NCBI RefSeq assembly: GCF_044647545.1
Contig: NZ_CP172818.1
DNA: 64,000 nucleotides
Origin: Escherichia coli
Lineage (GTDB): Bacteria; Pseudomonadota; Gammaproteobacteria; Enterobacterales; Enterobacteriaceae
Direction: 5' to 3' (one strand)
Shown: one piece after another, positions 1-48,960 of the stretch
Position numbering within the stretch: the stretch's first letter is position 1
Layout of the letters: every line of letters starts with the position of its first letter
Program-made: the position numbers and the translations under genes
The notes under the pieces: generated by a model
Database searches by the model: none
What the model was told of the DNA's origin: nothing
The model's input: only the letters and a program-made list of their open reading frames with translations

Positions 1-154
1 GGAGGATCATACTATGAATGCATTTTTGCGTTTTCTGGATGCAGATATCCAGAACAACCCGCAAAAAACTCGTCCATTCAACATTCAACAAGGAAAGAAA
101 CTTGTCGCTGGCATGGACGTCAACATTGATGATGAGATTGGCGACGACGAATAA
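1..154 (+). CDS. prlF: PrlF (SohA) antitoxin, 3' portion only (5' end lies outside the window)
   Basis: In-frame translation ends ...MNAFLRFLDADIQNNPQKTRPFNIQQGKKLVAGMDVNIDDEIGDDE, stop TAA at 152-154 overlapping the yhaV ATG by 1 nt; recognised as the PrlF C-terminus. Confidence 0.8.
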   Translation, partial: EDHTMNAFLRFLDADIQNNPQKTRPFNIQQGKKLVAGMDVNIDDEIGDDE

Positions 155-618
155 TGGATTTTCCACAAAGGGTTAATGGTTGGGCGCTATATGCTCATCC
201 CTGTTTTCAGGAAACCTACGACGCTTTAGTTGCCGAAGTCGAGACATTAAAGGGAAAAGATCCTGAAAATTATCAGAGAAAAGCCGCCACAAAGTTATTG
301 GCGGTAGTCCATAAAGTGATTGAGGAGCATATCACGGTCAATCCATCATCACCGGCATTCCGTCATGGCAAGTCGTTAGGCTCTGGGAAAAATAAAGACT
401 GGTCACGGGTAAAATTTGGTGCTGGTCGTTATCGTCTCTTCTTTCGTTACAGCGAAAAAGAGAAAGTCATCATTCTGGGATGGATGAACGATGAAAACAC
501 GCTGCGCACCTACGGTAAAAAAACAGATGCCTATACCGTATTCAGCAAAATGTTAAAAAGAGGACATCCTCCTGCCGACTGGGAAACCCTCACCCGAGAG
601 ACAGAAGAAACCCATTGA
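154..618 (+). CDS. yhaV: YhaV ribosome-dependent mRNA interferase toxin (PrlF-YhaV TA system)
   Basis: 154-aa ORF in track; sequence recognised as YhaV; immediately downstream of and overlapping prlF. Confidence 0.9.
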   Translation: MDFPQRVNGWALYAHPCFQETYDALVAEVETLKGKDPENYQRKAATKLLAVVHKVIEEHITVNPSSPAFRHGKSLGSGKNKDWSRVKFGAGRYRLFFRYSEKEKVIILGWMNDENTLRTYGKKTDAYTVFSKMLKRGHPPADWETLTRETEETH

Positions 619-672
619 TGGTATTCACAATGCCCGCCGAACGCATTCGTGTTGACCAGCGGGCACCCTTTC

Positions 673-1482
673 TCACTCCCCGACCAGAATCACTTCAACC
701 CCAGCCTTTCGCAGTCCTTCCAGACTATCCGCAGGAATGCCTTCATCAACAATGATCATGTCGATACGTTGAGTATCAATGATCTTATGTAAACTGGAAC
801 GGTTGAACTTACTGGAATCGGTGACCACGATGATCCGTTCCGCAACTTCGCACATCCGACGGTTTAAACGGGCTTCATCTTCATTATGCGTGCTGACGCC
901 GCGCTCCAGATCGATCGCATCTACACCAAGAAACAGCATATCGAAGTGGTAATTTTGCAGCGATTGCTCAGCCTGATCACCGTAAAAAGATTGCGACTGA
1001 CGGCGCAAATGCCCCCCGGTCATCAGCAGCTCAACGCCTTCCGCTTCCAGCAACGCATTAGCCACGTTCATACCGTTGGTCATCGCAATTACGTCGGTGT
1101 GCTTGCGCATCAGACGAGCAATCTCAAAAGTGGTGGTCCCGGAGTCGAGGATCACCCGATGACCAGGCTGAATCAACTCAACGGCAGCTTTCGCAACGCT
1201 GCGTTTCATTGCGGTGTTCAGCGCGCTTTTATCTTCCACTGATGGCTCGACTGACGGCGTCGTGCTATCGCAGATCAACGCGCCGCCATAGGCACGCACA
1301 GCGATCCCCTGCTTTTCCAGAAACGCCAGATCGTTGCGGATCGTCACAGTAGATACACCATACAACGCCGATAGATCATTAACTTGCACACTCCCTTGCT
1401 GGCGCAGGCGTTGAATGATCTGCTCTCGTCGCTCACTGGTGCCTGTCACTCGCTTCTCGCCTGAAGCGTCGGTATTACTCAT
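673..1482 (-). CDS. agaR: AgaR, DeoR-family transcriptional repressor of the aga cluster
   Basis: 269-aa ORF; N-terminal HTH plus DeoR sugar-binding domain; divergent from kbaZ. Confidence 0.92.
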
Positions 1483-1487
1483 AGTAA

Positions 1488-1700
1488 GTCCTTTCGTAAA
1501 ACTTTCGTTTCATTTCGTTTTGCCTATTAACGCCTTTCTATTAAGCAAATGCAAGCCCACCTTACCCATTGGCGCAAGCTACTCTCGTTTCAGTGGCTTT
1601 CATTATGTTTCTTTTGTGAATCAGATCAGAAAACTATTATCTTTCGTTTTATTTTTATCTCACCATGGCGCAGTATCAACTGAAACAAAACGAAAGATTA
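1488..1700. promoter_or_regulatory. agaR-kbaZ divergent promoter region with repeated TTTCRTTT/CTTTC motifs (putative AgaR operators)
   Basis: Multiple direct and inverted copies of ctttcgttt, tttcatttcgtttt, gaaacaaaacgaaag in a 250-bp AT-rich intergenic region; AgaR operators are known to be CTTTC-rich. Confidence 0.5.
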
Positions 1701-1730
1701 ATATCGCAGTAATCTGAACTGGAGAGGAAA

Positions 1731-3011
1731 GTGAAACATCTGACAGAAATGGTGAGACAGCACAAAGAGGGCAAAACAAATGGGATTTATGCCGTTTGTT
1801 CCGCACATCCGCTGGTGCTGGAAGCTGCAATCCGCTACGCCAGTGCAAACCAAACGCCGTTACTGATTGAAGCAACCTCCAATCAGGTGGACCAGTTCGG
1901 CGGTTATACCGGAATGACGCCCGCCGATTTTCGCGGCTTTGTTTGTCAGCTCGCCGACTCGTTGAATTTCCCACAGGATGCGTTGATTCTGGGTGGCGAC
2001 CATCTGGGGCCAAACCGCTGGCAAAACCTGCCTGCCGCTCAGGCAATGGCCAATGCCGATGATTTGATTAAAAGCTACGTGGCGGCAGGATTCAAAAAAA
2101 TTCACCTTGATTGCAGCATGTCCTGTCAGGACGATCCGATTCCCTTAACTGATGACATCGTGGCCGAACGCGCCGCTCGTCTGGCGAAAGTGGCGGAAGA
2201 AACCTGCCGTGAACATTTTGGCGCGGCCGATCTGGAGTATGTCATTGGTACCGAAGTACCGGTACCTGGCGGCGCGCATGAAACCTTAAGCGAGCTGGCG
2301 GTCACCACGCCGGATGCCGCCCGCGCCACACTGGAAGCCCATCGCCACGCCTTTGAAAAGCAGGGCCTGAATGCCATCTGGCCACGCATTATTGCCCTGG
2401 TGGTTCAACCCGGCGTCGAATTCGATCACACCAACGTTATTGATTATCAGCCAGCTAAAGCGACCGCATTAAGCCAGATGGTCGAAAACTACGAAACGCT
2501 GATTTTCGAAGCGCACTCTACCGATTACCAAACGCCGCAATCGTTGCGCCAGCTGGTGATTGACCACTTTGCCATTCTGAAAGTTGGCCCGGCGCTGACC
2601 TTCGCCCTGCGTGAAGCTCTGTTCTCTCTGGCGGCGATTGAAGAAGAACTGGTGCCAGCAAAAGCCTGTTCTGGTCTGCGTCAGGTGCTGGAAAACGTGA
2701 TGCTCGACCGCCCGGAATACTGGCAAAGCCACTACCACGGTGACGGCAACGCGCGTCGTCTGGCGCGTGGTTATAGCTACTCGGATCGCGTGCGCTATTA
2801 CTGGCCGGACAGCCAGATTGATGACGCTTTCGCTCATCTGGTTCGTAATCTGGCGGATTCACCAATTCCGCTACCGCTCATCAGCCAGTATTTGCCGCTG
2901 CAATACGTGAAAGTTCGCTCCGGCGAGCTGCAGCCAACACCACGGGAACTCATTATCAACCATATTCAGGACATCCTGGCGCAGTACCACACAGCCTGTG
3001 AAGGCCAATAA
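1731..3011 (+). CDS. kbaZ: KbaZ (AgaZ) tagatose-bisphosphate aldolase non-catalytic subunit
   Basis: 426-aa ORF beginning GTG at 1731; recognised sequence. Confidence 0.9.
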
Positions 3012-3033
3012 GCAAAACAAAGAGGAACACGCT

Positions 3034-3507
3034 ATGCCAAATATTGTTTTAAGCCGGATTGATGAGCGTTTGATTCACGGTCAGGTCGGCGTTCAGTGGG
3101 TCGGATTTGCGGGGGCAAATCTGGTGCTGGTAGCCAACGATGAGGTTGCCGAAGATCCGGTACAACAAAACCTGATGGAAATGGTACTGGCAGAAGGGAT
3201 CGCCGTACGTTTCTGGACGCTGCAAAAAGTCATCGACAACATTCATCGCGCCGCCGATCGACAGAAAATCCTGCTGGTTTGTAAAACACCTGCCGATTTC
3301 CTGACGCTGGTGAAAGGTGGCGTTCCGGTGAATCGCATTAACGTTGGCAATATGCACTACGCCAATGGCAAGCAACAAATCGCCAAAACGGTTTCTGTGG
3401 ATGCGGGTGATATCGCAGCATTTAACGACCTGAAAGCCGCTGGGGTGGAATGCTTCGTTCAGGGCGTCCCGACAGAGCCTGCTGTGGACCTCTTTAAATT
3501 ACTTTGA
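3034..3507 (+). CDS. agaV: AgaV, PTS N-acetylgalactosamine-specific EIIB component
   Basis: ATG at 3034 (MPNIVLSRIDERLIHGQVG...), 157 aa; the track ORF begins 12 codons upstream. Confidence 0.9.
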   Translation: MPNIVLSRIDERLIHGQVGVQWVGFAGANLVLVANDEVAEDPVQQNLMEMVLAEGIAVRFWTLQKVIDNIHRAADRQKILLVCKTPADFLTLVKGGVPVNRINVGNMHYANGKQQIAKTVSVDAGDIAAFNDLKAAGVECFVQGVPTEPAVDLFKLL

Positions 3508-3517
3508 GGGATTCATC

Positions 3518-3919
3518 ATGGAAATCAGTCTGTTGCAGGCATTCGCGTTGGGCATTATCGCCTTTATCGCTGGCCTGGATATGTTTAACGGCCTAACCCA
3601 TATGCACCGCCCGGTGGTCCTCGGCCCGTTGGTCGGGCTGGTACTTGGCGATCTGCATACCGGTATTTTAACCGGCGGTACGCTGGAACTGGTGTGGATG
3701 GGGCTGGCCCCGCTGGCGGGCGCACAGCCGCCTAACGTGATTATCGGTACTATCGTCGGCACGGCGTTTGCCATTACTACTGGCGTGAAACCCGATGTCG
3801 CGGTCGGTGTCGCCGTACCTTTCGCTGTCGCAGTACAGATGGGGATTACCTTCCTGTTCTCGGTGATGTCCGGCGTGATGTCCCGCGGCGACCTGGCAAC
3901 AAACCCGTGCCGCGTTTGA
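3518..3919 (+). pseudogene. agaW: agaW' fragment of PTS EIIC component (N-terminal part only)
   Basis: 133-aa ORF with IIC-like transmembrane N-terminus that terminates prematurely; matches the truncated agaW of K-12, where agaE/agaF are missing. Confidence 0.8.
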
Positions 3920-3938
3920 CGCTGGTGCCGACGGCCTG

Positions 3939-4442
3939 GTGCATTGCTATAACGGGATGACAGGTTTACATCACCGCGAACCGGGAATGGTTGGCGCGGG
4001 ATTAACGGACAAGCGCGCCTGGCTGGAACTGATAGCCGATGGTCATCATGTACATCCGGCGGCGATGTCGCTGTGTTGTTGCTGTGCGAAAGAGAGAATC
4101 GTGCTGATCACCGACGCGATGCAGGCAGCCGGGATGCCGGATGGTCGCTATACGTTATGTGGTGAAGAAGTGCAGATGCACGATGGCGTTGTCCGTACCG
4201 CGTCCGGTGGGCTGGCGGGCAGTACGCTGTCTGTCGATGCGGCAGTGCGCAACATGGTCGAGTTGACGGGCGTAACGCCTGCGGAAGCCATCCATATGGC
4301 ATCGCTGCATCCGGCGCGTATGCTGGGTGTTGATGGTGTTCTGGGATCGCTTAAACCGGGCAAACGCGCCAGCGTCGTTGCGCTGGATAGCGGGCTGCAT
4401 GTGCAACAAATCTGGATTCAGGGTCAATTAGCTTCGTTTTGA
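3939..4442 (+). pseudogene. agaA: agaA' fragment of N-acetylgalactosamine-6-phosphate deacetylase (C-terminal part only)
   Basis: 167-aa ORF corresponding to the C-terminal region of a NagA-like amidohydrolase; no N-terminal metal-binding region. Confidence 0.8.
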
Positions 4443-4518
4443 TGGTTTGCTCCTTTATTGGGCCTTCACTTCCCCCGTAAGGCCTTTCTTTTTCTTTCTT
4501 TTTGATCTGTGCAGCGGT

Positions 4519-4575
4519 GTCGGATGCGACGCTGACGCGTCTTCTTCGACCTACGGTACGCCGCATCCGGCAATC
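4519..4575. repeat. REP-like palindromic element
   Basis: gtcggatgcgacgctgacgcgtcttcttcgacctacggtacgccgcatccggca; reverse complement begins GCCGGATGCGGCGTA, typical of REP. Confidence 0.5.
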
Positions 4576-4599
4576 GGTGAACATAGCGACGTTATCACG

Positions 4600-4755
4600 C
4601 AATCCTTTAATCTTCCCTTGTCTTTTCTTTCAATGATCACAAATTTCGTTTTATTTCTTTTTTCTCCATTGAACTTTCAGTTTCTTTTCTATAGATTTTA
4701 ATCAACGAAAGACATCACCAAGTGAAATGAAACGAAAGGTAAGCGAAAGCGACAA
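4600..4755. promoter_or_regulatory. agaS promoter region with CTTTC/TTTCRTTT repeats (putative AgaR operators)
   Basis: Clustered motifs cttttctttc, tttcgttttatttc, tttcagtttcttttc, gaaatgaaacgaaag directly upstream of agaS. Confidence 0.5.
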
Positions 4756-4792
4756 CGCCCGACGCCAAGTTCATCAGACTAAGGATTGAGTT

Positions 4793-5947
4793 ATGCCAGA
4801 AAATTACACCCCTGCTGCCGCTGCAACCGGTACATGGACTGAAGAAGAGATCCGCCATCAGCCTCGCGCATGGATCCGTTCACTCACCAACATCGACGCG
4901 CTACGTTCCGCGCTCAATAACTTCCTTGAACCGTTACTGCGCAAAGAGAATCTGCGGGTAATCCTGACCGGAGCCGGAACCTCGGCATTTATCGGTGATA
5001 TCATCGCGCCGTGGCTCGCCAGCCATACCGGTAAAAACTTCAGCGCCGTACCGACCACCGATCTGGTCACTAATCCGATGGACTACCTGAATCCAGCTCA
5101 TCCGCTACTGTTGATCTCCTTCGGTCGATCCGGCAACAGCCCGGAAAGCGTCGCCGCCGTGGAACTGGCGAATCAGTTTGTACCGGAATGCTATCACCTG
5201 CCGATCACCTGCAACGAAGCGGGCGCTCTTTACCAAAACGCGATCAACAGCGACAACGCGTTTGCCCTGCTGATGCCCGCAGAAACGCACGATCGCGGCT
5301 TTGCGATGACCAGCAGCATTACCACCATGATGGCCAGCTGCCTCGCGGTTTTCGCACCTGAGACGATCAACAGCCAAACCTTCCGCGATGTGGCAGATCG
5401 TTGCCAGGAAATCCTGACCTCACTGGGCGATTTCAGCGAAGGTGTGTTTGGTTACGCACCGTGGAAACGGATCGTTTATCTCGGCAGCGGTGGCTTACAG
5501 GGCGCAGCACGCGAGTCGGCGCTGAAAGTACTGGAACTGACAGCGGGTAAACTGGCGGCCTTTTATGATTCCCCGACCGGATTCCGTCATGGCCCGAAAT
5601 CGCTGGTCGATAACGAAACGCTGGTGGTGGTGTTTGTCTCCAGCCACCCTTACACCCGTCAGTATGATCTTGATCTGCTGGCAGAACTCCGCCGCGATAA
5701 CCAGGCATTGCGCGTAATCGCCATCGCCGCGGAAAGCAACGACGTTATTACCGCCGGTCCACATATCATCCTGCCGCCGTCCCGTCACTTTATCGACGTT
5801 GAGCAGGCATTTTGCTTCCTGATGTACGCCCAGACGTTTGCACTGATGCAGTCGCTGCACATGGGTAATACGCCGGATACCCCATCAGCCAGTGGCACCG
5901 TTAACCGCGTGGTGCAAGGCGTAATCATTCATCCGTGGCAGGCATAA
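4793..5947 (+). CDS. agaS: AgaS, SIS-domain sugar isomerase/deaminase (putative galactosamine-6-phosphate deaminase)
   Basis: 384-aa ORF; recognised sequence. Confidence 0.92.
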   Translation: MPENYTPAAAATGTWTEEEIRHQPRAWIRSLTNIDALRSALNNFLEPLLRKENLRVILTGAGTSAFIGDIIAPWLASHTGKNFSAVPTTDLVTNPMDYLNPAHPLLLISFGRSGNSPESVAAVELANQFVPECYHLPITCNEAGALYQNAINSDNAFALLMPAETHDRGFAMTSSITTMMASCLAVFAPETINSQTFRDVADRCQEILTSLGDFSEGVFGYAPWKRIVYLGSGGLQGAARESALKVLELTAGKLAAFYDSPTGFRHGPKSLVDNETLVVVFVSSHPYTRQYDLDLLAELRRDNQALRVIAIAAESNDVITAGPHIILPPSRHFIDVEQAFCFLMYAQTFALMQSLHMGNTPDTPSASGTVNRVVQGVIIHPWQA

Positions 5948-6820
<873 letters not shown>

Positions 6821-6986
6821 TCATTAGTTTTTTATGATTTATCCCAATGTACTTCCCGATTAATATCGGGGAGTGCCTTAATGGAAAAGGAGATGACTAA
6901 ACCTTAATAAATACATAAGTACAATATCGCAACAATAATATATTTAAAAAAATTATATTATTCAACTTTATGGTGAGGATTACACA

Positions 6987-7463
6987 ATGAGCAGTCCAAA
7001 TATTCTCTTAACCCGTATTGATAACCGTCTGGTTCACGGTCAGGTTGGCGTGACCTGGACATCCACCATCGGTGCGAATCTGTTGGTAGTCGTGGATGAT
7101 GTTGTCGCTAACGATGATATTCAACAGAAATTAATGGGTATTACCGCAGAAACCTACGGCTTTGGCATTCGTTTCTTTACTATCGAAAAAACCATTAACG
7201 TCATCGGCAAAGCTGCACCGCATCAGAAGATCTTCCTGATTTGCCGTACGCCACAAACGGTACGTAAATTGGTAGAAGGTGGTATTGACCTGAAAGATGT
7301 CAACGTCGGCAATATGCATTTCTCGGAAGGGAAAAAGCAAATCAGCAGTAAAGTTTATGTCGATGACCAGGATCTCACGGACTTACATTTTATTAAACAA
7401 CGTGGCGTGAATGTTTTCATTCAGGACGTCCCTGGCGATCAAAAAGAACAAATCCCTGACTAA
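6987..7463 (+). CDS. agaB: AgaB, PTS galactosamine-specific EIIB component
   Basis: 158-aa ORF; paralogous to AgaV (RIDNRLVHGQVG motif). Confidence 0.92.
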   Translation: MSSPNILLTRIDNRLVHGQVGVTWTSTIGANLLVVVDDVVANDDIQQKLMGITAETYGFGIRFFTIEKTINVIGKAAPHQKIFLICRTPQTVRKLVEGGIDLKDVNVGNMHFSEGKKQISSKVYVDDQDLTDLHFIKQRGVNVFIQDVPGDQKEQIPD

Positions 7464-7501: not shown

Positions 7502-8305
7502 ATGCATGAAATAACCCTACTCCAGGGATTATCCCTGGCGGCGTTAGTTTTCTTTCTGGGGATTGATTTTTGGCTGGAAGCCTTATTTTTATTCCGCCCG
7601 ATAATCGTTTGTACCCTTACAGGTGCTATTCTCGGTGATATTCAGACTGGCTTAATTACCGGTGGCCTGACAGAGTTGGCTTTCGCCGGATTAACCCCTG
7701 CAGGTGGTGTTCAGCCGCCCAACCCTATTATGGCGGGTCTGATGACCACTGTCATTGCATGGTCTACGGGCGTTGATGCCAAAACGGCAATTGGTCTTGG
7801 CCTGCCGTTTAGTTTGTTAATGCAGTACGTCATTCTGTTCTTCTATTCCGCTTTCTCATTATTTATGACCAAAGCCGATAAATGCGCAAAAGAGGCGGAT
7901 ACGGCAGCATTTTCCCGACTTAACTGGACAACGATGCTCATCGTCGCTTCAGCGTATGCGGTGATTGCTTTCCTCTGTACTTACCTGGCACAAGGGGCGA
8001 TGCAGGCGCTGGTGAAAGCGATGCCCGCTTGGCTGACCCACGGCTTTGAAGTGGCTGGCGGTATTCTGCCTGCCGTTGGTTTTGGCTTGCTGCTGCGCGT
8101 GATGTTCAAAGCGCAATATATCCCTTACCTGATCGCCGGTTTCCTGTTCGTTTGCTACATCCAGGTCAGCAACCTGTTGCCGGTTGCCGTGCTGGGTGCA
8201 GGCTTTGCGGTGTATGAGTTTTTCAATGCGAAATCCCGGCAGCAAGCGCAACCGCAGTCCGTTGTCAGTAATAATGAAGAAGAGGACTACAGCAATGGGA
8301 TCTGA
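7502..8305 (+). CDS. agaC: AgaC, PTS galactosamine-specific EIIC component
   Basis: 267-aa hydrophobic ORF. Confidence 0.92.
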   Translation: MHEITLLQGLSLAALVFFLGIDFWLEALFLFRPIIVCTLTGAILGDIQTGLITGGLTELAFAGLTPAGGVQPPNPIMAGLMTTVIAWSTGVDAKTAIGLGLPFSLLMQYVILFFYSAFSLFMTKADKCAKEADTAAFSRLNWTTMLIVASAYAVIAFLCTYLAQGAMQALVKAMPAWLTHGFEVAGGILPAVGFGLLLRVMFKAQYIPYLIAGFLFVCYIQVSNLLPVAVLGAGFAVYEFFNAKSRQQAQPQSVVSNNEEEDYSNGI

Positions 8306-9086
8306 AATCAGTAAAAAAGATATCACCCGTCTGGGCTTTCGTTCGTCACTGCTGCAAGCGAGCTTTAACTACGAAAGGATGCAGGCGGGCGGTTTTACCT
8401 GGGCGATGTTGCCGATCCTGAAAAAGATTTATAAGGACGACAAACCGGGCCTAAGCGCGGCGATGAAAGATAACCTCGAATTTATTAATACCCACCCGAA
8501 TCTGGTCGGATTCCTGATGGGGTTATTAATTTCGATGGAAGAAAAAGGAGAAAACCGCGACACCATTAAAGGCCTCAAAGTGGCACTGTTTGGCCCAATC
8601 GCCGGGATTGGCGATGCGATTTTCTGGTTTACCTTATTGCCGATTATGGCGGGAATTTGCTCATCATTTGCCAGCCAGGGAAACTTGCTGGGGCCGATTC
8701 TATTTTTCGCCGTTTACCTGCTTATCTTCTTCCTGCGCGTCGGCTGGACCCACGTCGGTTATTCAGTCGGCGTGAAGGCTATTGATAAAGTGCGAGAGAA
8801 CTCGCAGATGATTGCTCGTTCGGCAACCATCCTCGGGATCACGGTAATCGGCGGGCTGATCGCTTCGTATGTGCATATTAACGTGGTGACATCGTTTGCC
8901 ATCGACAGTACCCACAGCGTCGCACTGCAGCAGGATTTCTTCGATAAAGTCTTCCCGAACATTTTACCGATGGCCTACACCCTGCTGATGTATTACTTCC
9001 TGCGGGTGAAAAAAGCGCATCCGGTGCTGTTAATCGGCGTGACTTTTGTGCTCTCTATTGTTTGTTCCGCATTCGGCATTTTGTAA
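8295..9086 (+). CDS. agaD: AgaD, PTS galactosamine-specific EIID component
   Basis: ATG at 8295 (MGSEISKKDITRLGF...), 263 aa, overlapping the agaC 3' end by 11 nt; the track ORF begins 37 codons upstream. Confidence 0.9.
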   Translation: MGSEISKKDITRLGFRSSLLQASFNYERMQAGGFTWAMLPILKKIYKDDKPGLSAAMKDNLEFINTHPNLVGFLMGLLISMEEKGENRDTIKGLKVALFGPIAGIGDAIFWFTLLPIMAGICSSFASQGNLLGPILFFAVYLLIFFLRVGWTHVGYSVGVKAIDKVRENSQMIARSATILGITVIGGLIASYVHINVVTSFAIDSTHSVALQQDFFDKVFPNILPMAYTLLMYYFLRVKKAHPVLLIGVTFVLSIVCSAFGIL

Positions 9087-9953
9087 ATGGAACGAGGCAC
9101 TGCGTCTGGCGGTGCCTCTTTACTTAAGGAATTTCATCCTGTGCAAACCCTTCAACAAGTTGAAAACTATACGGCGTTAAGTGAACGTGCCAGCGAATAT
9201 TTATTGGCCGTGATCCGTAGTAAACCGGATGCCGTGATTTGCCTGGCGACCGGAGCCACGCCATTACTGACGTATCATTATCTGGTAGAAAAAATCCACC
9301 AGCAGCAGGTTGATGTCAGCCAGCTCACCTTCGTGAAGCTCGACGAATGGGTGGATCTGCCATTAACAATGCCTGGCACCTGCGAAACTTTCCTACAACA
9401 GCATATCGTGCAGCCGCTGGGGCTGCGTGAAGACCAGCTCATCAGCTTTCGCTCTGAAGAGATAAATGAGACAGAGTGCGAACGGGTAACGAACCTGATT
9501 GCGCGCAAAGGCGGTCTGGATTTATGCGTTCTCGGATTGGGGAAAAACGGTCATCTTGGGCTGAACGAACCGGGAGAAAGCCTGCAACCGGCCTGCCATA
9601 TCAGTCAACTTGATGCCAGAACACAGCAACATGAGATGTTAAAAACCGCGGGCCGTCCCGTGACTCGTGGGATCACCTTAGGCCTGAAGGATATTCTCAA
9701 TACCCGCGAAGTTTTGCTACTGGTGACTGGCGAAGGAAAGCAGGATGCGACAGAACGTTTTCTCACGGCTAAAGTCTCTACCGCTATCCCGGCTTCTTGG
9801 GGCAACGCCCACACTCTCCCCCTGCTGCTCCAGTGCATACTTATACAGCGCATTTTTCTTCACGCCGTGAATTTCTGCTGCCAGCGCCGCCGCTTTTTTC
9901 AGTGGCAGTTCTGCCTGCAACAGCGCCAGCGTGCGCAGGGCATCGGCGGGTAA
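9087..9953 (+). CDS. agaI: AgaI-like galactosamine-6-phosphate isomerase/deaminase (NagB family) with altered 3' end: after about codon 238 the ORF is translation of antisense rsmI
   Basis: NagB-family ORF, ATG at 9087. Reference AgaI is recalled as 251 aa; here the frame stays open to 9953 (288 aa) and the tail ...[36 protein letters not shown]... is not NagB-like. Confidence 0.7.
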
Positions 9954-14325: not shown

Positions 14326-14440
14326 GCCATTGATCGGTCGTTGAAGTAAATATTCACACCTTAGCCGACCTGTTCCCCTCACCCTAACCCTCCCCAAACC
14401 GAAAGGGGACAGATCAGGCTGTATTCAGGAGCATCCAACA

Positions 14441-15481
14441 TCAGGCCAACAGCGCCAACCCGCCGACAATCACACCAGACACTGCCACCATCGCCCCTGT
14501 CAGCCATAAGGCTTTCGCCGGGAACGCTTTGCGCAGCATAATCAGTGACGGCAAACTCACCGCCGGGAGCGTCATCAACAATGCCAGCGCCGGAGCGGTT
14601 CCCATGCCTGCCAGCATCATCGTTTGTACAATCGGAATTTCTGCTGCCGTGGGAATGACAAACAAGCATCCTGCCACCGCCATCGCCACCACCCACATCA
14701 GGCTGTTATCGACAGCACCATCGGCATGGGGGAATAACCAGACGCGAGCGGCACCCAACACCAGTACTGCAAGGATGTAAACCGGGATCGTACTCCAGAA
14801 AAGCGTCCATAGCGCCCTGCCCCAGCGGCTAAAAAATCCTCCCTGTGCTTCCGGTATGTCAATTTCGACCGGTGCCTGCGTTTGCGGTGTTTCACGCACC
14901 CATTTTTGCACCAGCGTCGCAATCAGCAACACCATCACCAGCCCCGCCACCAGACGAATCGCGGCAAAGCCCCAGCCAAGGACAAATCCCATGAATACCA
15001 GCGTCGCCGGGTTTAACAACGGATTCCCCATCCAGAATGCCAGCGCGCCCCCCATCGATACCTGTTGACGCCGCATTCCCGCCGCGACCGGAGCCGCACA
15101 GCAGGTACACATCATGCCCGGCAGCGAAAACAGCGTTCCCAGCAGCGTGCCGCGAAAGCGCGATTGCCCAAGCGTACGCAATAACCAGTCACGCGGGATC
15201 AGCACCTGAATCAACGACCCGAGCAGTACGCCCAGCACCGCCGCTTTCCATACCGCGAGGAAATAGATCATCGCGTAATCCAACGCCGCCTGCCACGGAT
15301 TAGCATCCGCCTGCGCAAGGATAGATTTACCGATACTGTGGGTTTCGGCAGCAGTAAACGCTTTGCCGTAGTAAGGTTGCCATTTCACATACCAGAGACC
15401 AGCAATGACAACGAGAAAGAAAAGCGCGGGTTTCCACCACTGAATGGGCGTTGCCGCCTGAGATGAAGACTGACCAGTCAT
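14441..15481 (-). CDS. yraQ: YraQ putative permease
   Basis: 346-aa hydrophobic ORF. Confidence 0.88.
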   Translation of the reverse strand: MTGQSSSQAATPIQWWKPALFFLVVIAGLWYVKWQPYYGKAFTAAETHSIGKSILAQADANPWQAALDYAMIYFLAVWKAAVLGVLLGSLIQVLIPRDWLLRTLGQSRFRGTLLGTLFSLPGMMCTCCAAPVAAGMRRQQVSMGGALAFWMGNPLLNPATLVFMGFVLGWGFAAIRLVAGLVMVLLIATLVQKWVRETPQTQAPVEIDIPEAQGGFFSRWGRALWTLFWSTIPVYILAVLVLGAARVWLFPHADGAVDNSLMWVVAMAVAGCLFVIPTAAEIPIVQTMMLAGMGTAPALALLMTLPAVSLPSLIMLRKAFPAKALWLTGAMVAVSGVIVGGLALLA

Positions 15482-30685: not shown

Positions 30686-33358
30686 TTAAGCGATGGTACG
30701 TTGGATTTCGATGATTTCGAATACTTCGATCACATCGCCAGTGCGGACATCGTTGTAGTTCTTAACGCCGATACCACATTCCATACCGTTACGGACTTCG
30801 TTAACGTCATCTTTGAAGCGGCGCAGGGACTCCAGCTCGCCTTCGTAGATAACCACGTTGTCGCGCAGAACGCGGATCGGGTTGTGACGTTTAACCACAC
30901 CTTCGGTAACCATACAACCTGCGATGGCACCAAATTTCGGTGATTTGAATACGTCACGAACTTCCGCCAGACCGATAATCTGTTGTTTCAGTTCCGGAGA
31001 CAGCATACCGCTCATTGCCGCTTTCACTTCGTCGATCAGGTTATAGATGACGGAGTAGTAACGCAGATCCAGGCTTTCCGCTTCAATTACTTTACGTGCA
31101 GAGGCATCAGCACGTACGTTGAAGCCAACCAGGATGGCGTTGGACGCCGCAGCCAGGGTAGCGTCGGTTTCGGTGATACCACCTACGCCAGAACCGATGA
31201 TCTTCACTTTAACTTCGTCAGTAGACAGTTTCAGCAAGGAGTCGGAGATAGCTTCCACAGAACCCTGTACGTCTGCCTTCAGGACGATATTCACTTCGTG
31301 AACTTCGCCTTCGGTCATGTTGGCGAACATGTTCTCGAGTTTAGATTTCTGCTGACGCGCCAGTTTAACTTCGCGGAATTTACCCTGACGATAGAGTGCA
31401 ACTTCACGCGCTTTCTTCTCGTCACGTACAACGGTAACTTCATCACCCGCAGCCGGAACGCCGGACAGGCCGAGGATTTCCACCGGAATGGACGGACCCG
31501 CTTCCAGCACTTCCTGACCCAGTTCGTTACGCATCGCACGAACACGACCGTATTCGAAGCCACACAGAACGATATCGCCCTTGTGCAGAGTACCTTCACG
31601 TACCAGAACGGTAGCAACCGGACCACGACCTTTATCGAGGAAGGATTCGATAACCGCACCGCTCGCCATGCCTTTACGTACCGCTTTCAGTTCCAGAACT
31701 TCCGCCTGCAGCAGGATAGCGTCCAGCAGCTCATCGATACCAGTACCCGCTTTCGCAGACACATGTACGAACTGGCTTTCACCGCCCCACTCTTCCGGCA
31801 GGATGCCGTACTGGGAGAGTTCGTTCTTAACGCGATCCGGATCGGCTTCTGGTTTATCGATCTTGTTCACTGCAACGACCACCGGAACCTGCGCCGCTTT
31901 CGCGTGCTGGATTGCTTCGATGGTCTGCGGCATTACGCCGTCGTCGGCAGCAACAACCAGGACTACGATGTCCGTTGCCTGCGCACCACGAGCACGCATT
32001 GAAGTAAACGCGGCGTGCCCCGGGGTGTCCAGGAAGGTGATCATGCCGTTTTCAGTTTCAACGTGGTATGCACCAATGTGCTGGGTAATGCCGCCCGCTT
32101 CGCCAGAGGCCACTTTCGTTGAACGAATGTAGTCCAGCAGAGAGGTTTTACCGTGGTCAACGTGACCCATGATGGTCACAACCGGCGCGCGCGGTTCAGC
32201 CGCTGCACCCGTGTCACGGTCGCTCATTACCGCTTCTTCCAGCTCGTTTTCACGACGCAGAATAACTTTGTGGCCCATCTCTTCAGCAACCAGCTGTGCG
32301 GTTTCCTGATCGATAACCTGGTTGATGGTTGCCATTGCGCCCAGTTTCATCATCGCTTTGATGACCTGAGAGCCTTTAACCGCCATCTTGTTCGCCAGTT
32401 CGCCAACGGTGATGGTTTCACCGATCACAACGTCACGGTTAACGGCCTGAGCAGGCTTCTGGAAGCCTTGCTGCAGCGAAGAACCTTTACGTTTTCCGCC
32501 TTTACCGCCACGTACTGCTGCGCGTGCTTCTTCACGATCAGCTTTTGATTCAGCGTGTTTGTTGCCTTTCTTCGGACGCGCAGCTTTCGCGTTACGACCA
32601 CGGCCACGGCCGCCTTCGACTTCACGATCGCTTTCGTCTTCTGCCTGGCGAGCATGTTGAGAAGTAGTGACGTGATAATCGCTGGAATCTTCAGTCGGTT
32701 CCGCGTTATCAGTCCATTTGTTTTCTTCCGCCATACGACGTGCTTCTTCAGCAACGCGACGTGCTTCTTCTTCGAGTTTACGACGCGCTTCTTCTTCGGC
32801 TTTACGCTTGAGCTCTGCAGCTTCCTGCTCACGGCGGGCTTTTTCAGCCTGGGCGTTTTTAGTCATATCGTCTTGTTGATTGCTCACTTTGTCTTTTTCC
32901 GCAGCTTCACGTTTCGCTTGTTCAGCAGCTTCGCGCTTAGCTTGTTCTGCGGCCTCACGTTCAGCTTTTTGTTGCGCCTCACATTTGGCCGATTCTTCTG
33001 CCTCACGACGGGCTTGCTCTTCCGCTTCACGCTGCGCTTGCTCTTCCGCAGCAAGGCGTTCAGCCTCTTGCGGATCGCGTTTCACAAAGGTGCGTTTCTT
33101 GCGGACTTCGATTTGTACCGATTTGCTTTTTCCACCGGTACCAGGAATGTTAAGGGTGCTGCGTGTTTTACGTTGCAGCGTCAATTTGTCCGGGCCTGAA
33201 TTTTTCTGATTCAGGTGGTCAATCAAAGTCTGTTTCTCTTGTGCAGACACAGAGTCGTCAGCAGACTTCCGGATACCTGCATCAGCAAATTGCTGTACCA
33301 GGCGTTCCACGGAGGTCTGTCGCTCTGCGGCCAGCGTTTTAATCGTTACATCTGTCAT
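30686..33358 (-). CDS. infB: Translation initiation factor IF-2
   Basis: 890-aa ORF with GTPase motifs. Confidence 0.95.
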
Positions 33359-46305: not shown

Positions 46306-47739
46306 ATGCGATTTTCCAGATTTATCATCGGATTGACCAGCTGTATAGCGTTCAGTGTTCAGGCCGCAAATGTTGATGAGTACATTACTCAACTCCCCGC
46401 TGGTGCCAACCTTGCCCTGATGGTGCAAAAAGTCGGCGCGTCGGCCCCCGCTATTGATTACCACAGTCAGCAGATGGCGCTGCCCGCCAGTACGCAGAAA
46501 GTGATTACTGCGCTGGCGGCGTTGATTCAACTCGGCCCCGATTTTCGTTTTACCACGACGCTTGAAACCAAAGGTAATGTGGAAAACGGTGTACTTAAGG
46601 GTGACTTAGTAGCGCGATTTGGTGCCGATCCGACGTTAAAACGTCAGGATATTCGCAATATGGTCGCGACTTTGAAAAAATCTGGCGTCAACCAAATCGA
46701 TGGCAATGTGTTGATAGATACCTCCATTTTCGCCAGCCACGATAAAGCCCCCGGCTGGCCATGGAATGACATGACACAATGCTTTAGCGCTCCGCCTGCC
46801 GCCGCCATAGTTGACCGCAACTGTTTCTCCGTCTCGCTCTATAGTGCCCCAAAACCTGGTGATATGGCTTTTATACGCGTGGCATCTTATTACCCCGTTA
46901 CGATGTTCAGCCAGGTACGCACCCTCCCCCGTGGTTCTGCCGAAGCGCAATACTGCGAGCTGGATGTGGTGCCAGGCGACCTGAACCGCTTTACGCTGAC
47001 CGGATGCCTGCCACAACGTTCTGAGCCGCTCCCGTTGGCTTTTGCCGTGCAGGATGGTGCCAGCTATGCTGGGGCAATTCTGAAAGATGAGTTAAAACAG
47101 GCAGGTATCACCTGGAGCGGAACACTGCTACGCCAGACTCAGGTTAACGAACCTGGAACGGTAGTTGCCAGTAAACAGTCGGCCCCGCTGCACGATCTGC
47201 TTAAGATTATGCTGAAAAAGTCGGACAACATGATTGCCGATACGGTTTTCCGCATGATCGGCCATGCGCGCTTCAATGTGCCTGGAACATGGCGGGCCGG
47301 GTCGGACGCCGTGCGTCAGATCCTGCGCCAGCAAGCCGGTGTCGATATTGGTAACACCATTATTGCCGATGGTTCAGGGCTTTCGCGGCATAACCTGATT
47401 GCCCCCGCCACCATGATGCAGGTGCTGCAATACATTGCCCAACACGACAATGAACTTAACTTTATCTCTATGCTGCCGCTGGCGGGCTATGACGGCTCTT
47501 TGCAGTACCGTGCAGGTCTGCATCAGGCGGGCGTGGATGGCAAAGTCTCAGCGAAAACCGGCTCGTTGCAGGGGGTATATAACCTGGCGGGATTCATTAC
47601 CACGGCGAGCGGGCAACGAATGGCGTTTGTGCAATATCTTTCTGGCTATGCAGTAGAACCGGCGGATCAGCGTAATCGCCGTATTCCGTTAGTGCGTTTT
47701 GAAAGCCGTTTGTATAAAGATATTTATCAGAACAATTAG
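46306..47739 (+). CDS. dacB: DacB D-alanyl-D-alanine carboxypeptidase/endopeptidase (PBP4)
   Basis: 477-aa ORF with signal peptide. Confidence 0.93.
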   Translation: MRFSRFIIGLTSCIAFSVQAANVDEYITQLPAGANLALMVQKVGASAPAIDYHSQQMALPASTQKVITALAALIQLGPDFRFTTTLETKGNVENGVLKGDLVARFGADPTLKRQDIRNMVATLKKSGVNQIDGNVLIDTSIFASHDKAPGWPWNDMTQCFSAPPAAAIVDRNCFSVSLYSAPKPGDMAFIRVASYYPVTMFSQVRTLPRGSAEAQYCELDVVPGDLNRFTLTGCLPQRSEPLPLAFAVQDGASYAGAILKDELKQAGITWSGTLLRQTQVNEPGTVVASKQSAPLHDLLKIMLKKSDNMIADTVFRMIGHARFNVPGTWRAGSDAVRQILRQQAGVDIGNTIIADGSGLSRHNLIAPATMMQVLQYIAQHDNELNFISMLPLAGYDGSLQYRAGLHQAGVDGKVSAKTGSLQGVYNLAGFITTASGQRMAFVQYLSGYAVEPADQRNRRIPLVRFESRLYKDIYQNN

Positions 47740-47749
47740 TCAAAAAGAA

Positions 47750-47770
47750 ACCCCGGCACATGGCCGGGGT
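47750..47770. terminator. Bidirectional terminator hairpin between convergent dacB and obgE
   Basis: aaaccccggcacatggccggggtg. Confidence 0.55.
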
Positions 47771-47772
47771 GA

Positions 47773-48960
<1,188 letters not shown>

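Follow-up and report, generated by a model that had tools for sequence, protein, structure and literature searches.

A K-12-type deletion in the aga cluster on an ST648-type Escherichia coli background, probably derived from a K-12 template during genome assembly

Gene content of the aga locus

The window, that is, the whole stretch of 64 kb analyzed here, contains near its beginning an aga/kba cluster with the gene order agaR / kbaZ-agaV-agaW'-'agaA / agaS-kbaY-agaBCDI, which is the same as that of K-12. The features of this region are as follows (coordinates, strand, description and basis).

673-1482, minus strand: agaR, DeoR-family repressor of the aga regulon, intact (NCBIfam AgaR, 465 bits; cutoff 260)
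1731-3011, plus strand: kbaZ (agaZ), 426 aa, intact (KbaZ equivalog model, 897.8 bits; cutoff 707)
3034-3507, plus strand: agaV, EIIB of the GalNAc PTS, 157 aa, intact (PRK11425, 319.9 bits; cutoff 180)
3518-3919, plus strand: agaW', pseudogene with a 133-aa ORF (ORF list, NCBIfam AgaW, Pfam EII-Sor and comparison with AgaW)
3884-3893, no strand: deletion junction, a single copy of a 10-bp repeat (overlap of the left and right BLAST arms)
3894-4442, plus strand: 'agaA remnant, agaA codons 196-377 (ORF list, nagA model and comparison with AgaA)
4793-5947, plus strand: agaS, second operon, ORF intact
5960-6820, plus strand: kbaY, second operon, ORF intact
6987-7463, plus strand: agaB, second operon, ORF intact
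7502-8305, plus strand: agaC, second operon, ORF intact
8295-9086, plus strand: agaD, second operon, ORF intact (coordinates transferred from the K-12 annotation)
9087-9819, plus strand: agaI, 3' end lost (ORF list and alignments; garbled junction at 9797-9819)

The agaR annotation is also present at the homologous loci of other genomes. kbaZ is the first gene of the kbaZ-agaVWEFA operon, and the agaV product covers positions 1-157 of the 157 positions of the PRK11425 model. Upstream of agaR, at 14-618, lie prlF (3' end only) and yhaV (complete), a type II toxin-antitoxin pair that has the same location in K-12 and ST648.

The sequence-only reading had proposed that agaV is followed by a 133-aa fragment of AgaW and a 167-aa C-terminal fragment of AgaA, and the two ORFs were indeed found at 3518-3919 and 3939-4442. 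The first of them is composite: positions 3518-3893 correspond to agaW nt 1-376 (125 AgaW codons), and positions 3894-3919 are agaA sequence read out of frame, which adds eight codons (LATNPCRV) before a stop. Residues 1-123 of AgaW' are identical to residues 1-123 of the 259-aa AgaW of MS6198, and the fragment matches positions 1-122 of 233 in Pfam EII-Sor and positions 1-116 of 249 in NCBIfam AgaW, where its score of 192.9 bits falls under the 300-bit cutoff because only the N-terminal half remains. The 'agaA remnant is promoterless and has lost the N-terminal 195 codons; window position 3894 is agaA nt 586, the start of codon 196, and the agaA reading frame is open from there through to 4442. 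The ORF within it begins with a GTG at 3939 (agaA codon 211), equals residues 211-377 of the 377-aa AgaA except for this GTG start, and matches positions 218-379 of 380 in the nagA model with a score below the cutoff.

The absence of agaE (EIID) and agaF (EIIA) from between the two fragments, also part of that reading, holds as well: no ORF for either gene is present there in the ORF list of the window, and the 2305 bp that contain both genes have no counterpart between positions 3893 and 3894. The sequence thus lacks the C-terminal half of EIIC, all of EIID and the shared EIIA, as well as the first 195 codons of the deacetylase, whereas kbaZ, agaV and agaS-kbaY-agaBCD stay intact.

Breakpoints of the deletion

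The window was compared with the intact clusters of O157:H7 and MS6198 by BLAST. Relative to both, exactly 2305 bp are missing, namely agaW nt 377-780, the whole of agaE and agaF, and agaA nt 1-585. The left arm of the alignment stops at window position 3893 and the right arm begins at 3884, so that alignment to the O157:H7 cluster, which had been suggested as a way of mapping the endpoints, places them at a 10-bp repeat at 3884-3893, about 10-50 bp away from the junction at about 3900-3940 that the sequence alone had suggested. This lesion pattern is not a product of chance because each flank matches adjacent parts of a known operon at 97.9-100% identity over hundreds to thousands of bases.

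At the junction is an imperfect direct repeat of 10 bp whose copies occupy agaW nt 367-376 and agaA nt 576-585. In MS6198, these copies (CGATGCGACC in agaW and CGCGGCGACC in agaA) lie 2305 bp apart and match at 8 of 10 positions in ST648; the copies of O157:H7 read CGCTGCGACC and CGCGGCGACC. The window keeps one hybrid copy, CGCGGCGACC, and K-12 keeps CGCTGCGACC, the two retained copies differing at one base (G in the window vs T in K-12 at 3887). The lost segment is therefore bounded by short direct repeats in the intact allele and a single copy is retained at the junction, as in a deletion mediated by microhomology. An intact ST648 reference for this region is NZ_CP033850.1, positions 793,788-797,017, and the window reads GTCCCGCGGCGACCTGGCAAC across its junction. 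The left arm (3893 bp) differs from MS6198 at only two positions, 3886 (C) and 3887 (G), both of which carry the agaA-side base, and no mismatch is found in the right arm (3884-7160, 3277 bp).

We also considered whether the repeat might be a hotspot, an idea that was rejected: 55 families of direct repeats were detected in the 4.1-kb region, and the 20 best or largest of them do not include the breakpoint repeat, which is therefore no obvious mutational hotspot.

Comparison with the K-12 lesion

The K-12 lesion is described in PMC3668189 and PMC2808357 as a 2.3-kb deletion that removed agaE and agaF and truncated agaW and agaA, and both papers ascribe this agaW'EF'A deletion to Brinkkotter et al. 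(2000). According to PMC3668189, K-12 strains with the deletion are Aga- Gam-, as the sequence-only reading had stated for GalNAc; EIIA (agaF) is common to both transporters, which accounts for the double phenotype in the accounts of PMC3668189 and PMC9628945. In K-12, the lesion thus abolishes uptake of, and growth on, both GalNAc and GalN.

The proposal that the window carries a K-12-type deletion scar stands as far as architecture is concerned. Positions 3400-4498 align with MG1655 in one ungapped alignment of 1099 bp that runs through the junction, which means that the deletion has the same register and, together with the published 2.3-kb deletion, matches the K-12 anatomy: agaW is cut near codon 125 and joined directly to the 3' 40-50% of agaA, agaE and agaF are absent, and the breakpoints are those of MG1655. 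The same segment of 2305 bp is missing from K-12 and from the window, it is bounded by the same two 10-bp repeats, and what is left encodes in both a 133-aa AgaW' ending in an out-of-frame tail and an AgaA' fragment from the C-terminus. However, the proposal fails for the genome itself, which is not K-12 (see below), and the scar probably does not belong to this strain but derives from a template. Identity to K-12 around the lesion is only 97.8% (24 mismatches in 1099 bp); K-12 carries different bases at 3883 (1 bp left of the repeat) and at 3908 (15 bp right of it), the AgaW' tail of the window reads ...RGDLATNPCRV, unlike that of K-12, and the yraHIJK segment which follows agaI in K-12 is absent.

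The anatomy of the K-12 lesion fits illegitimate recombination between the two 10-bp repeats, and because K-12 retains the agaW-side T, its crossover may be placed within GCGACC. A deletion hotspot or a site-specific mechanism is a speculation attributed to Brinkkotter et al.

Genomic background of the window

A three-way alignment of the window, MG1655 and FDAARGOS_497 (ST648) over the 64 kb contains 1148 variable sites. The window agrees with ST648 and not with K-12 at 1139 of them, and with K-12 and not with ST648 at only five, every one of which lies inside 9797-9819; two further sites are private to the window, and at another two (9810 and 9815) all three sequences differ. Small indels of 1-17 bp in the window follow ST648, and the 1-bp insertions of ST648 are present. 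ST648-type genomes (MS6198, FDAARGOS_497, Ecol_881 and others, in which agaVWEFA is complete) match the first 12 kb of the window at 100.0% identity in four pieces that span 15.2 kb, and their identity to the 25 kb that follow is 99.9%. Positions 1-3893 show two mismatches to ST648, both inside the repeat, positions 3884-7160 show none, and the other 54 kb show seven. The lesion is therefore not of the K-12 haplotype by descent, with 97.8% identity locally and 1139 ST648-type vs 5 K-12-type sites over 64 kb, and for the same reasons the possibility that the window is K-12 sequence was rejected. An origin in Shigella or another species need not be invoked, given the 99.96-100% identity to ST648 E. 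coli.

An intact aga/kba cluster is known in the Aga+ strains E. coli C and O157:H7 and in the ST648 strains MS6198 and FDAARGOS_497. Like the intact ST648 clusters, the window has flanks that are 99.95-100% identical to them and, apart from the 3' end of agaI, its other aga genes are full length. Unlike them, it lacks agaW nt 377-780, agaE, agaF, agaA nt 1-585 and an IS1 in agaB.

Structural differences along the window

The differences between the window and ST648, its nearest natural relatives, are confined to five sites at which K-12 and ST648 themselves differ in structure, plus one SNP at 32983. These sites are as follows.

3884-3893 (aga): K-12 lacks the 2305 bp; ST648 has them; the window lacks them
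7152-7160 (agaB): K-12 has no IS1; ST648 has a 777-bp IS1; the window has no IS1
9797-9819 (agaI/rsmI): K-12 has 5.5 kb with yraHIJK; ST648 has 108 bp; the window has about 20 garbled bp
14393-14442 (dolP-yraQ spacer): K-12 has a 109-bp block; ST648 has a non-homologous 116-bp block; the window has a 110-bp block
47769: K-12 has a 151-bp REP block; ST648 has TTTTGC; the window has neither and joins the shared flanks exactly

Segments that only ST648 possesses (2305 bp and 777 bp) and segments that only K-12 possesses (5.5 kb and 151 bp) are thus equally absent. The IS1 in agaB of MS6198 and FDAARGOS_497 is 777 bp long with a 9-bp target duplication; JBEHAAB-19-0176 has two IS1 copies in agaB and other top matches are split likewise, and agaB of the window is uninterrupted. 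Its missing IS1 could represent the ancestral state or an insertion dropped by templating.

At the agaI/rsmI junction, about 20 bp stand in place of the final ~58 bp of agaI and of the intergenic spacer. Neither of the two convergent genes keeps its normal stop codon here, so that the ORF of agaI extends to 288 aa and that of rsmI to 319 aa. The dolP-yraQ spacer of ST648 carries a palindromic repeat element, CCCTCTCCCCAAAGGGGAGAGGG. Within 14393-14442, the window shows eight substitutions and six missing bases relative to ST648, and its block, which is roughly as long as that of K-12, contains short K-12-like strings. An attempt to read this block as a position-wise mixture of K-12 and ST648 (in ungapped K-12 coordinates) did not give a clean result, only the length and a few strings being in agreement. 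The site at 47769 lies between dacB and cgtA (obgE), where TTTTGC of ST648 follows a terminator hairpin.

Three of the boundary sequences are garbled or unique. Among 5,426 complete E. coli genomes, no one-piece match was found for 47700-47840 or for 9730-9890, and no full match for 14330-14490, for which the best reached 93.4%. On the other hand, the window tracks ST648 exactly across two stretches that cannot be aligned with K-12, one of about 37 bp (4554-4591) and one of 67 bp (14326-14392).

Distribution of the deletion in other genomes

The junction is present in 370 of the 5,426 complete genomes. Carriers among the matches listed are laboratory derivatives of K-12, plus a few records that are undersized or of MG1655 size. 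On the haplotype of the window, the deletion was found in none of the 5,426 (best full-length match, 98.3%), and no near-identical ST648 genome among the matches listed carries it. A metagenome scan returned four contigs with the junction, which are 99.3-99.97% identical to K-12 and all have the K-12 haplotype and junction bases; the junction was not detected in a scan of GTDB species representatives.

The exact 133-aa AgaW' protein is on record only in CP147423.1 (GCA_037201865.1), a genome of 4.55 Mb with aga at 3.23 Mb, near the K-12 coordinate. Over 9.9 kb, this record and the window share 98.8% identity (1.2% divergence), so that it represents a different haplotype, but it has the same aga junction, and its agaI/rsmI junction retains only the parts alignable with K-12. 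In this record, kbaZ is split in two. The RefSeq genome BS-04 (NZ_CP172819.1, 4.52 Mb) has the K-12-register deletion on a third haplotype: over 7.8 kb, its identity to natural strains in which the cluster is intact (for example YA-1 and E24377A relatives) is 100.0%, and it contains a garbled K-12-like yhbX where YA-1 has another gene. Whether this yhbX region is pure K-12 reference is ambiguous, as it is K-12-like at 95% with garbled stretches. K-12-register aga deletions on non-K-12 haplotypes were also observed in BS-01, HS-01, PD007 and BHUCD02. The non-K-12 'complete' carriers are in some cases 4.49-4.55 Mb long and in others exactly of MG1655 size.

CP147423.1, BS-04, BS-01 and HS-01 resemble the window in combining non-K-12 SNPs and a K-12-register deletion with identity to natural strains whose clusters are intact, and records of this type, like the window, are garbled or cut to the shared part at structural differences from K-12. 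The BS- and HS-type records and CP147423.1 have sizes of 4.49-4.55 Mb and K-12-like coordinates. These four records, together with PD007 and BHUCD02, look K-12-templated. No exact protein is on record for the 319-aa extended RsmI or the 167-aa AgaA'.

Origin of the lesion

Considering that the lesion has the register of K-12 and yet its ST648 flanks are identical to those of genomes with intact clusters, and that metagenome contigs have the junction only on the K-12 haplotype, both of which we count in favor of a template origin, we think that the lesion probably came from a K-12 template during genome assembly and not from a mutation of the sequenced strain (probability of roughly 0.7). The nucleotide sequence of the window is of ST648 type (MS6198/FDAARGOS_497-like), but its large-scale structure is that of K-12 MG1655. 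Reads or contigs of the isolate would have been placed on, or used in polishing, such a template, in which case SNPs and indels of 1-17 bp would be carried over from the isolate data, template segments without coverage would be excised, and insertions missing from the template would never be built, with garbled sequence at the boundaries. If an intact ST648 contig were aligned to K-12 and its 2305-bp insertion dropped, two gap placements would score equally, and the left-most one would presumably yield exactly what is seen in the window, CCCG followed by CGGCGACC. A natural strain only 1 SNP per 54 kb from FDAARGOS_497 is not expected to differ from it precisely and solely at K-12/ST648 structural sites, nor is one expected to end everywhere with the intersection of both structures. 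Since the window follows ST648 through 4554-4591 and 14326-14392, a naive pile-up consensus is excluded, and local reassembly or polishing has to be assumed. From the pattern within the 64 kb, we infer templating as the cause and hence that the real strain would have an intact agaVWEFA. Other points may also be raised against templating. The CG at 3886-3887 is of the agaA side, and exactly the same sequence would arise if a genuine crossover had taken place in the CG at 3884-3885; in addition, the sites of difference are rich in repeats, intergenic and subject to natural variation, and the strain could simply have the ancestral state without IS1.

The second explanation, which we regard as unlikely but by no means negligible, is a real and independent deletion in an ST648-type strain, in which illegitimate recombination (slipped-strand or microhomology-mediated) between the same 10-bp imperfect repeats as in K-12 would have removed the same 2305 bp, with a crossover in the CG at 3884-3885 vs GCGACC in K-12, and the strain would have become Aga- Gam- by convergence with K-12. 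One hybrid repeat copy between perfect ST648 flanks is exactly what would remain after a recent microhomology deletion, the diagnostic G at 3887 (T in K-12) indicates that the junction is not K-12 DNA, and CP147423.1 and BS-04 show the same-register deletion on two further haplotypes. However, both of these carriers, which would have to be independent, are undersized and have K-12-like coordinates. Many nearby repeats are stronger than the breakpoint repeat, and nothing about it points to a hotspot at which three recent independent deletions would be plausible. An independent deletion also leaves unexplained why the other differences of the window coincide with K-12/ST648 structural differences, including the loss at 47769 of exactly the 6 bp that K-12 lacks and the loss of the rsmI and agaI stop codons. 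Likewise, the boundary sequences are unique among 5,426 genomes, none of these complete genomes or of the near-identical ST648 genomes among the matches listed has the deletion on this haplotype, and the metagenome contigs show the K-12 allele only. That the deletion is real and independent of K-12, which would mean that the same 2305 bp were lost at least twice, in unrelated lineages, at a weak 10-bp repeat and with differing crossovers, appears slightly more doubtful still; if CP147423.1 and the BS-0x records were genuine too, the same deletion would have happened three to four times.

Recombination between E. coli lineages is common and the register of the deletion is the same as in K-12, so a single-origin allele (from K-12 or an ancestor) imported by homologous recombination, or a laboratory K-12 x ST648 hybrid chromosome, was considered as well, but it is very improbable: the ST648 alleles at 3883 and 3908 and the non-K-12 base at 3887 would limit an imported tract to less than ~25 bp, the absence of yraHIJK and of the 151-bp REP block means that the chromosome is not a K-12 recipient, and the five K-12-like sites among the 1148 informative ones fall without exception in a single garbled junction. 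The flanking SNPs essentially refute a transfer of the K-12 allele through recombination.

The biological gain from this locus is small, as neither the lesion nor its phenotype is new (both known since 2000). Its practical value is that of a warning about K-12-shaped assemblies, in that the apparent loss of GalNAc utilization in an ST648-type strain is probably a template artefact. The same class of artefact appears in public 'complete' genomes, for example CP147423.1 and the RefSeq records BS-04, BS-01 and HS-01. An 'aga deletion outside K-12' and 'rsmI and agaI lacking stop codons' are examples of the mistaken conclusions on gene presence, pseudogenes and metabolic phenotype to which such records would lead. 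If, on the contrary, the deletion were real and independent, it would be evidence for a recurrent deletion at a true hotspot or by a site-specific mechanism, and for convergent loss of GalNAc/GalN uptake and thereby of a mucin-sugar pathway.

Additional observations

In the MS6198 cluster, a 17-nt inverted repeat (4853-4869 / 7273-7289, 88% complementary) brackets both breakpoints: one arm lies 15 nt upstream of the agaW repeat, the other 75 nt downstream of the agaA repeat. Pairing of these arms in single-stranded DNA could in principle juxtapose the two direct repeats, but the bracketing is probably due to chance because 40 comparable inverted pairs occur in 4 kb. For a 151-aa version of AgaA', protein matches are mostly frameshifted agaA genes inside intact clusters. 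Finally, the SNP at 32983 (A in the window, G in both K-12 and ST648) is the sole isolated private SNP in 54 kb; it falls in infB according to coordinates transferred from K-12 and is probably a genuine variant of the isolate.
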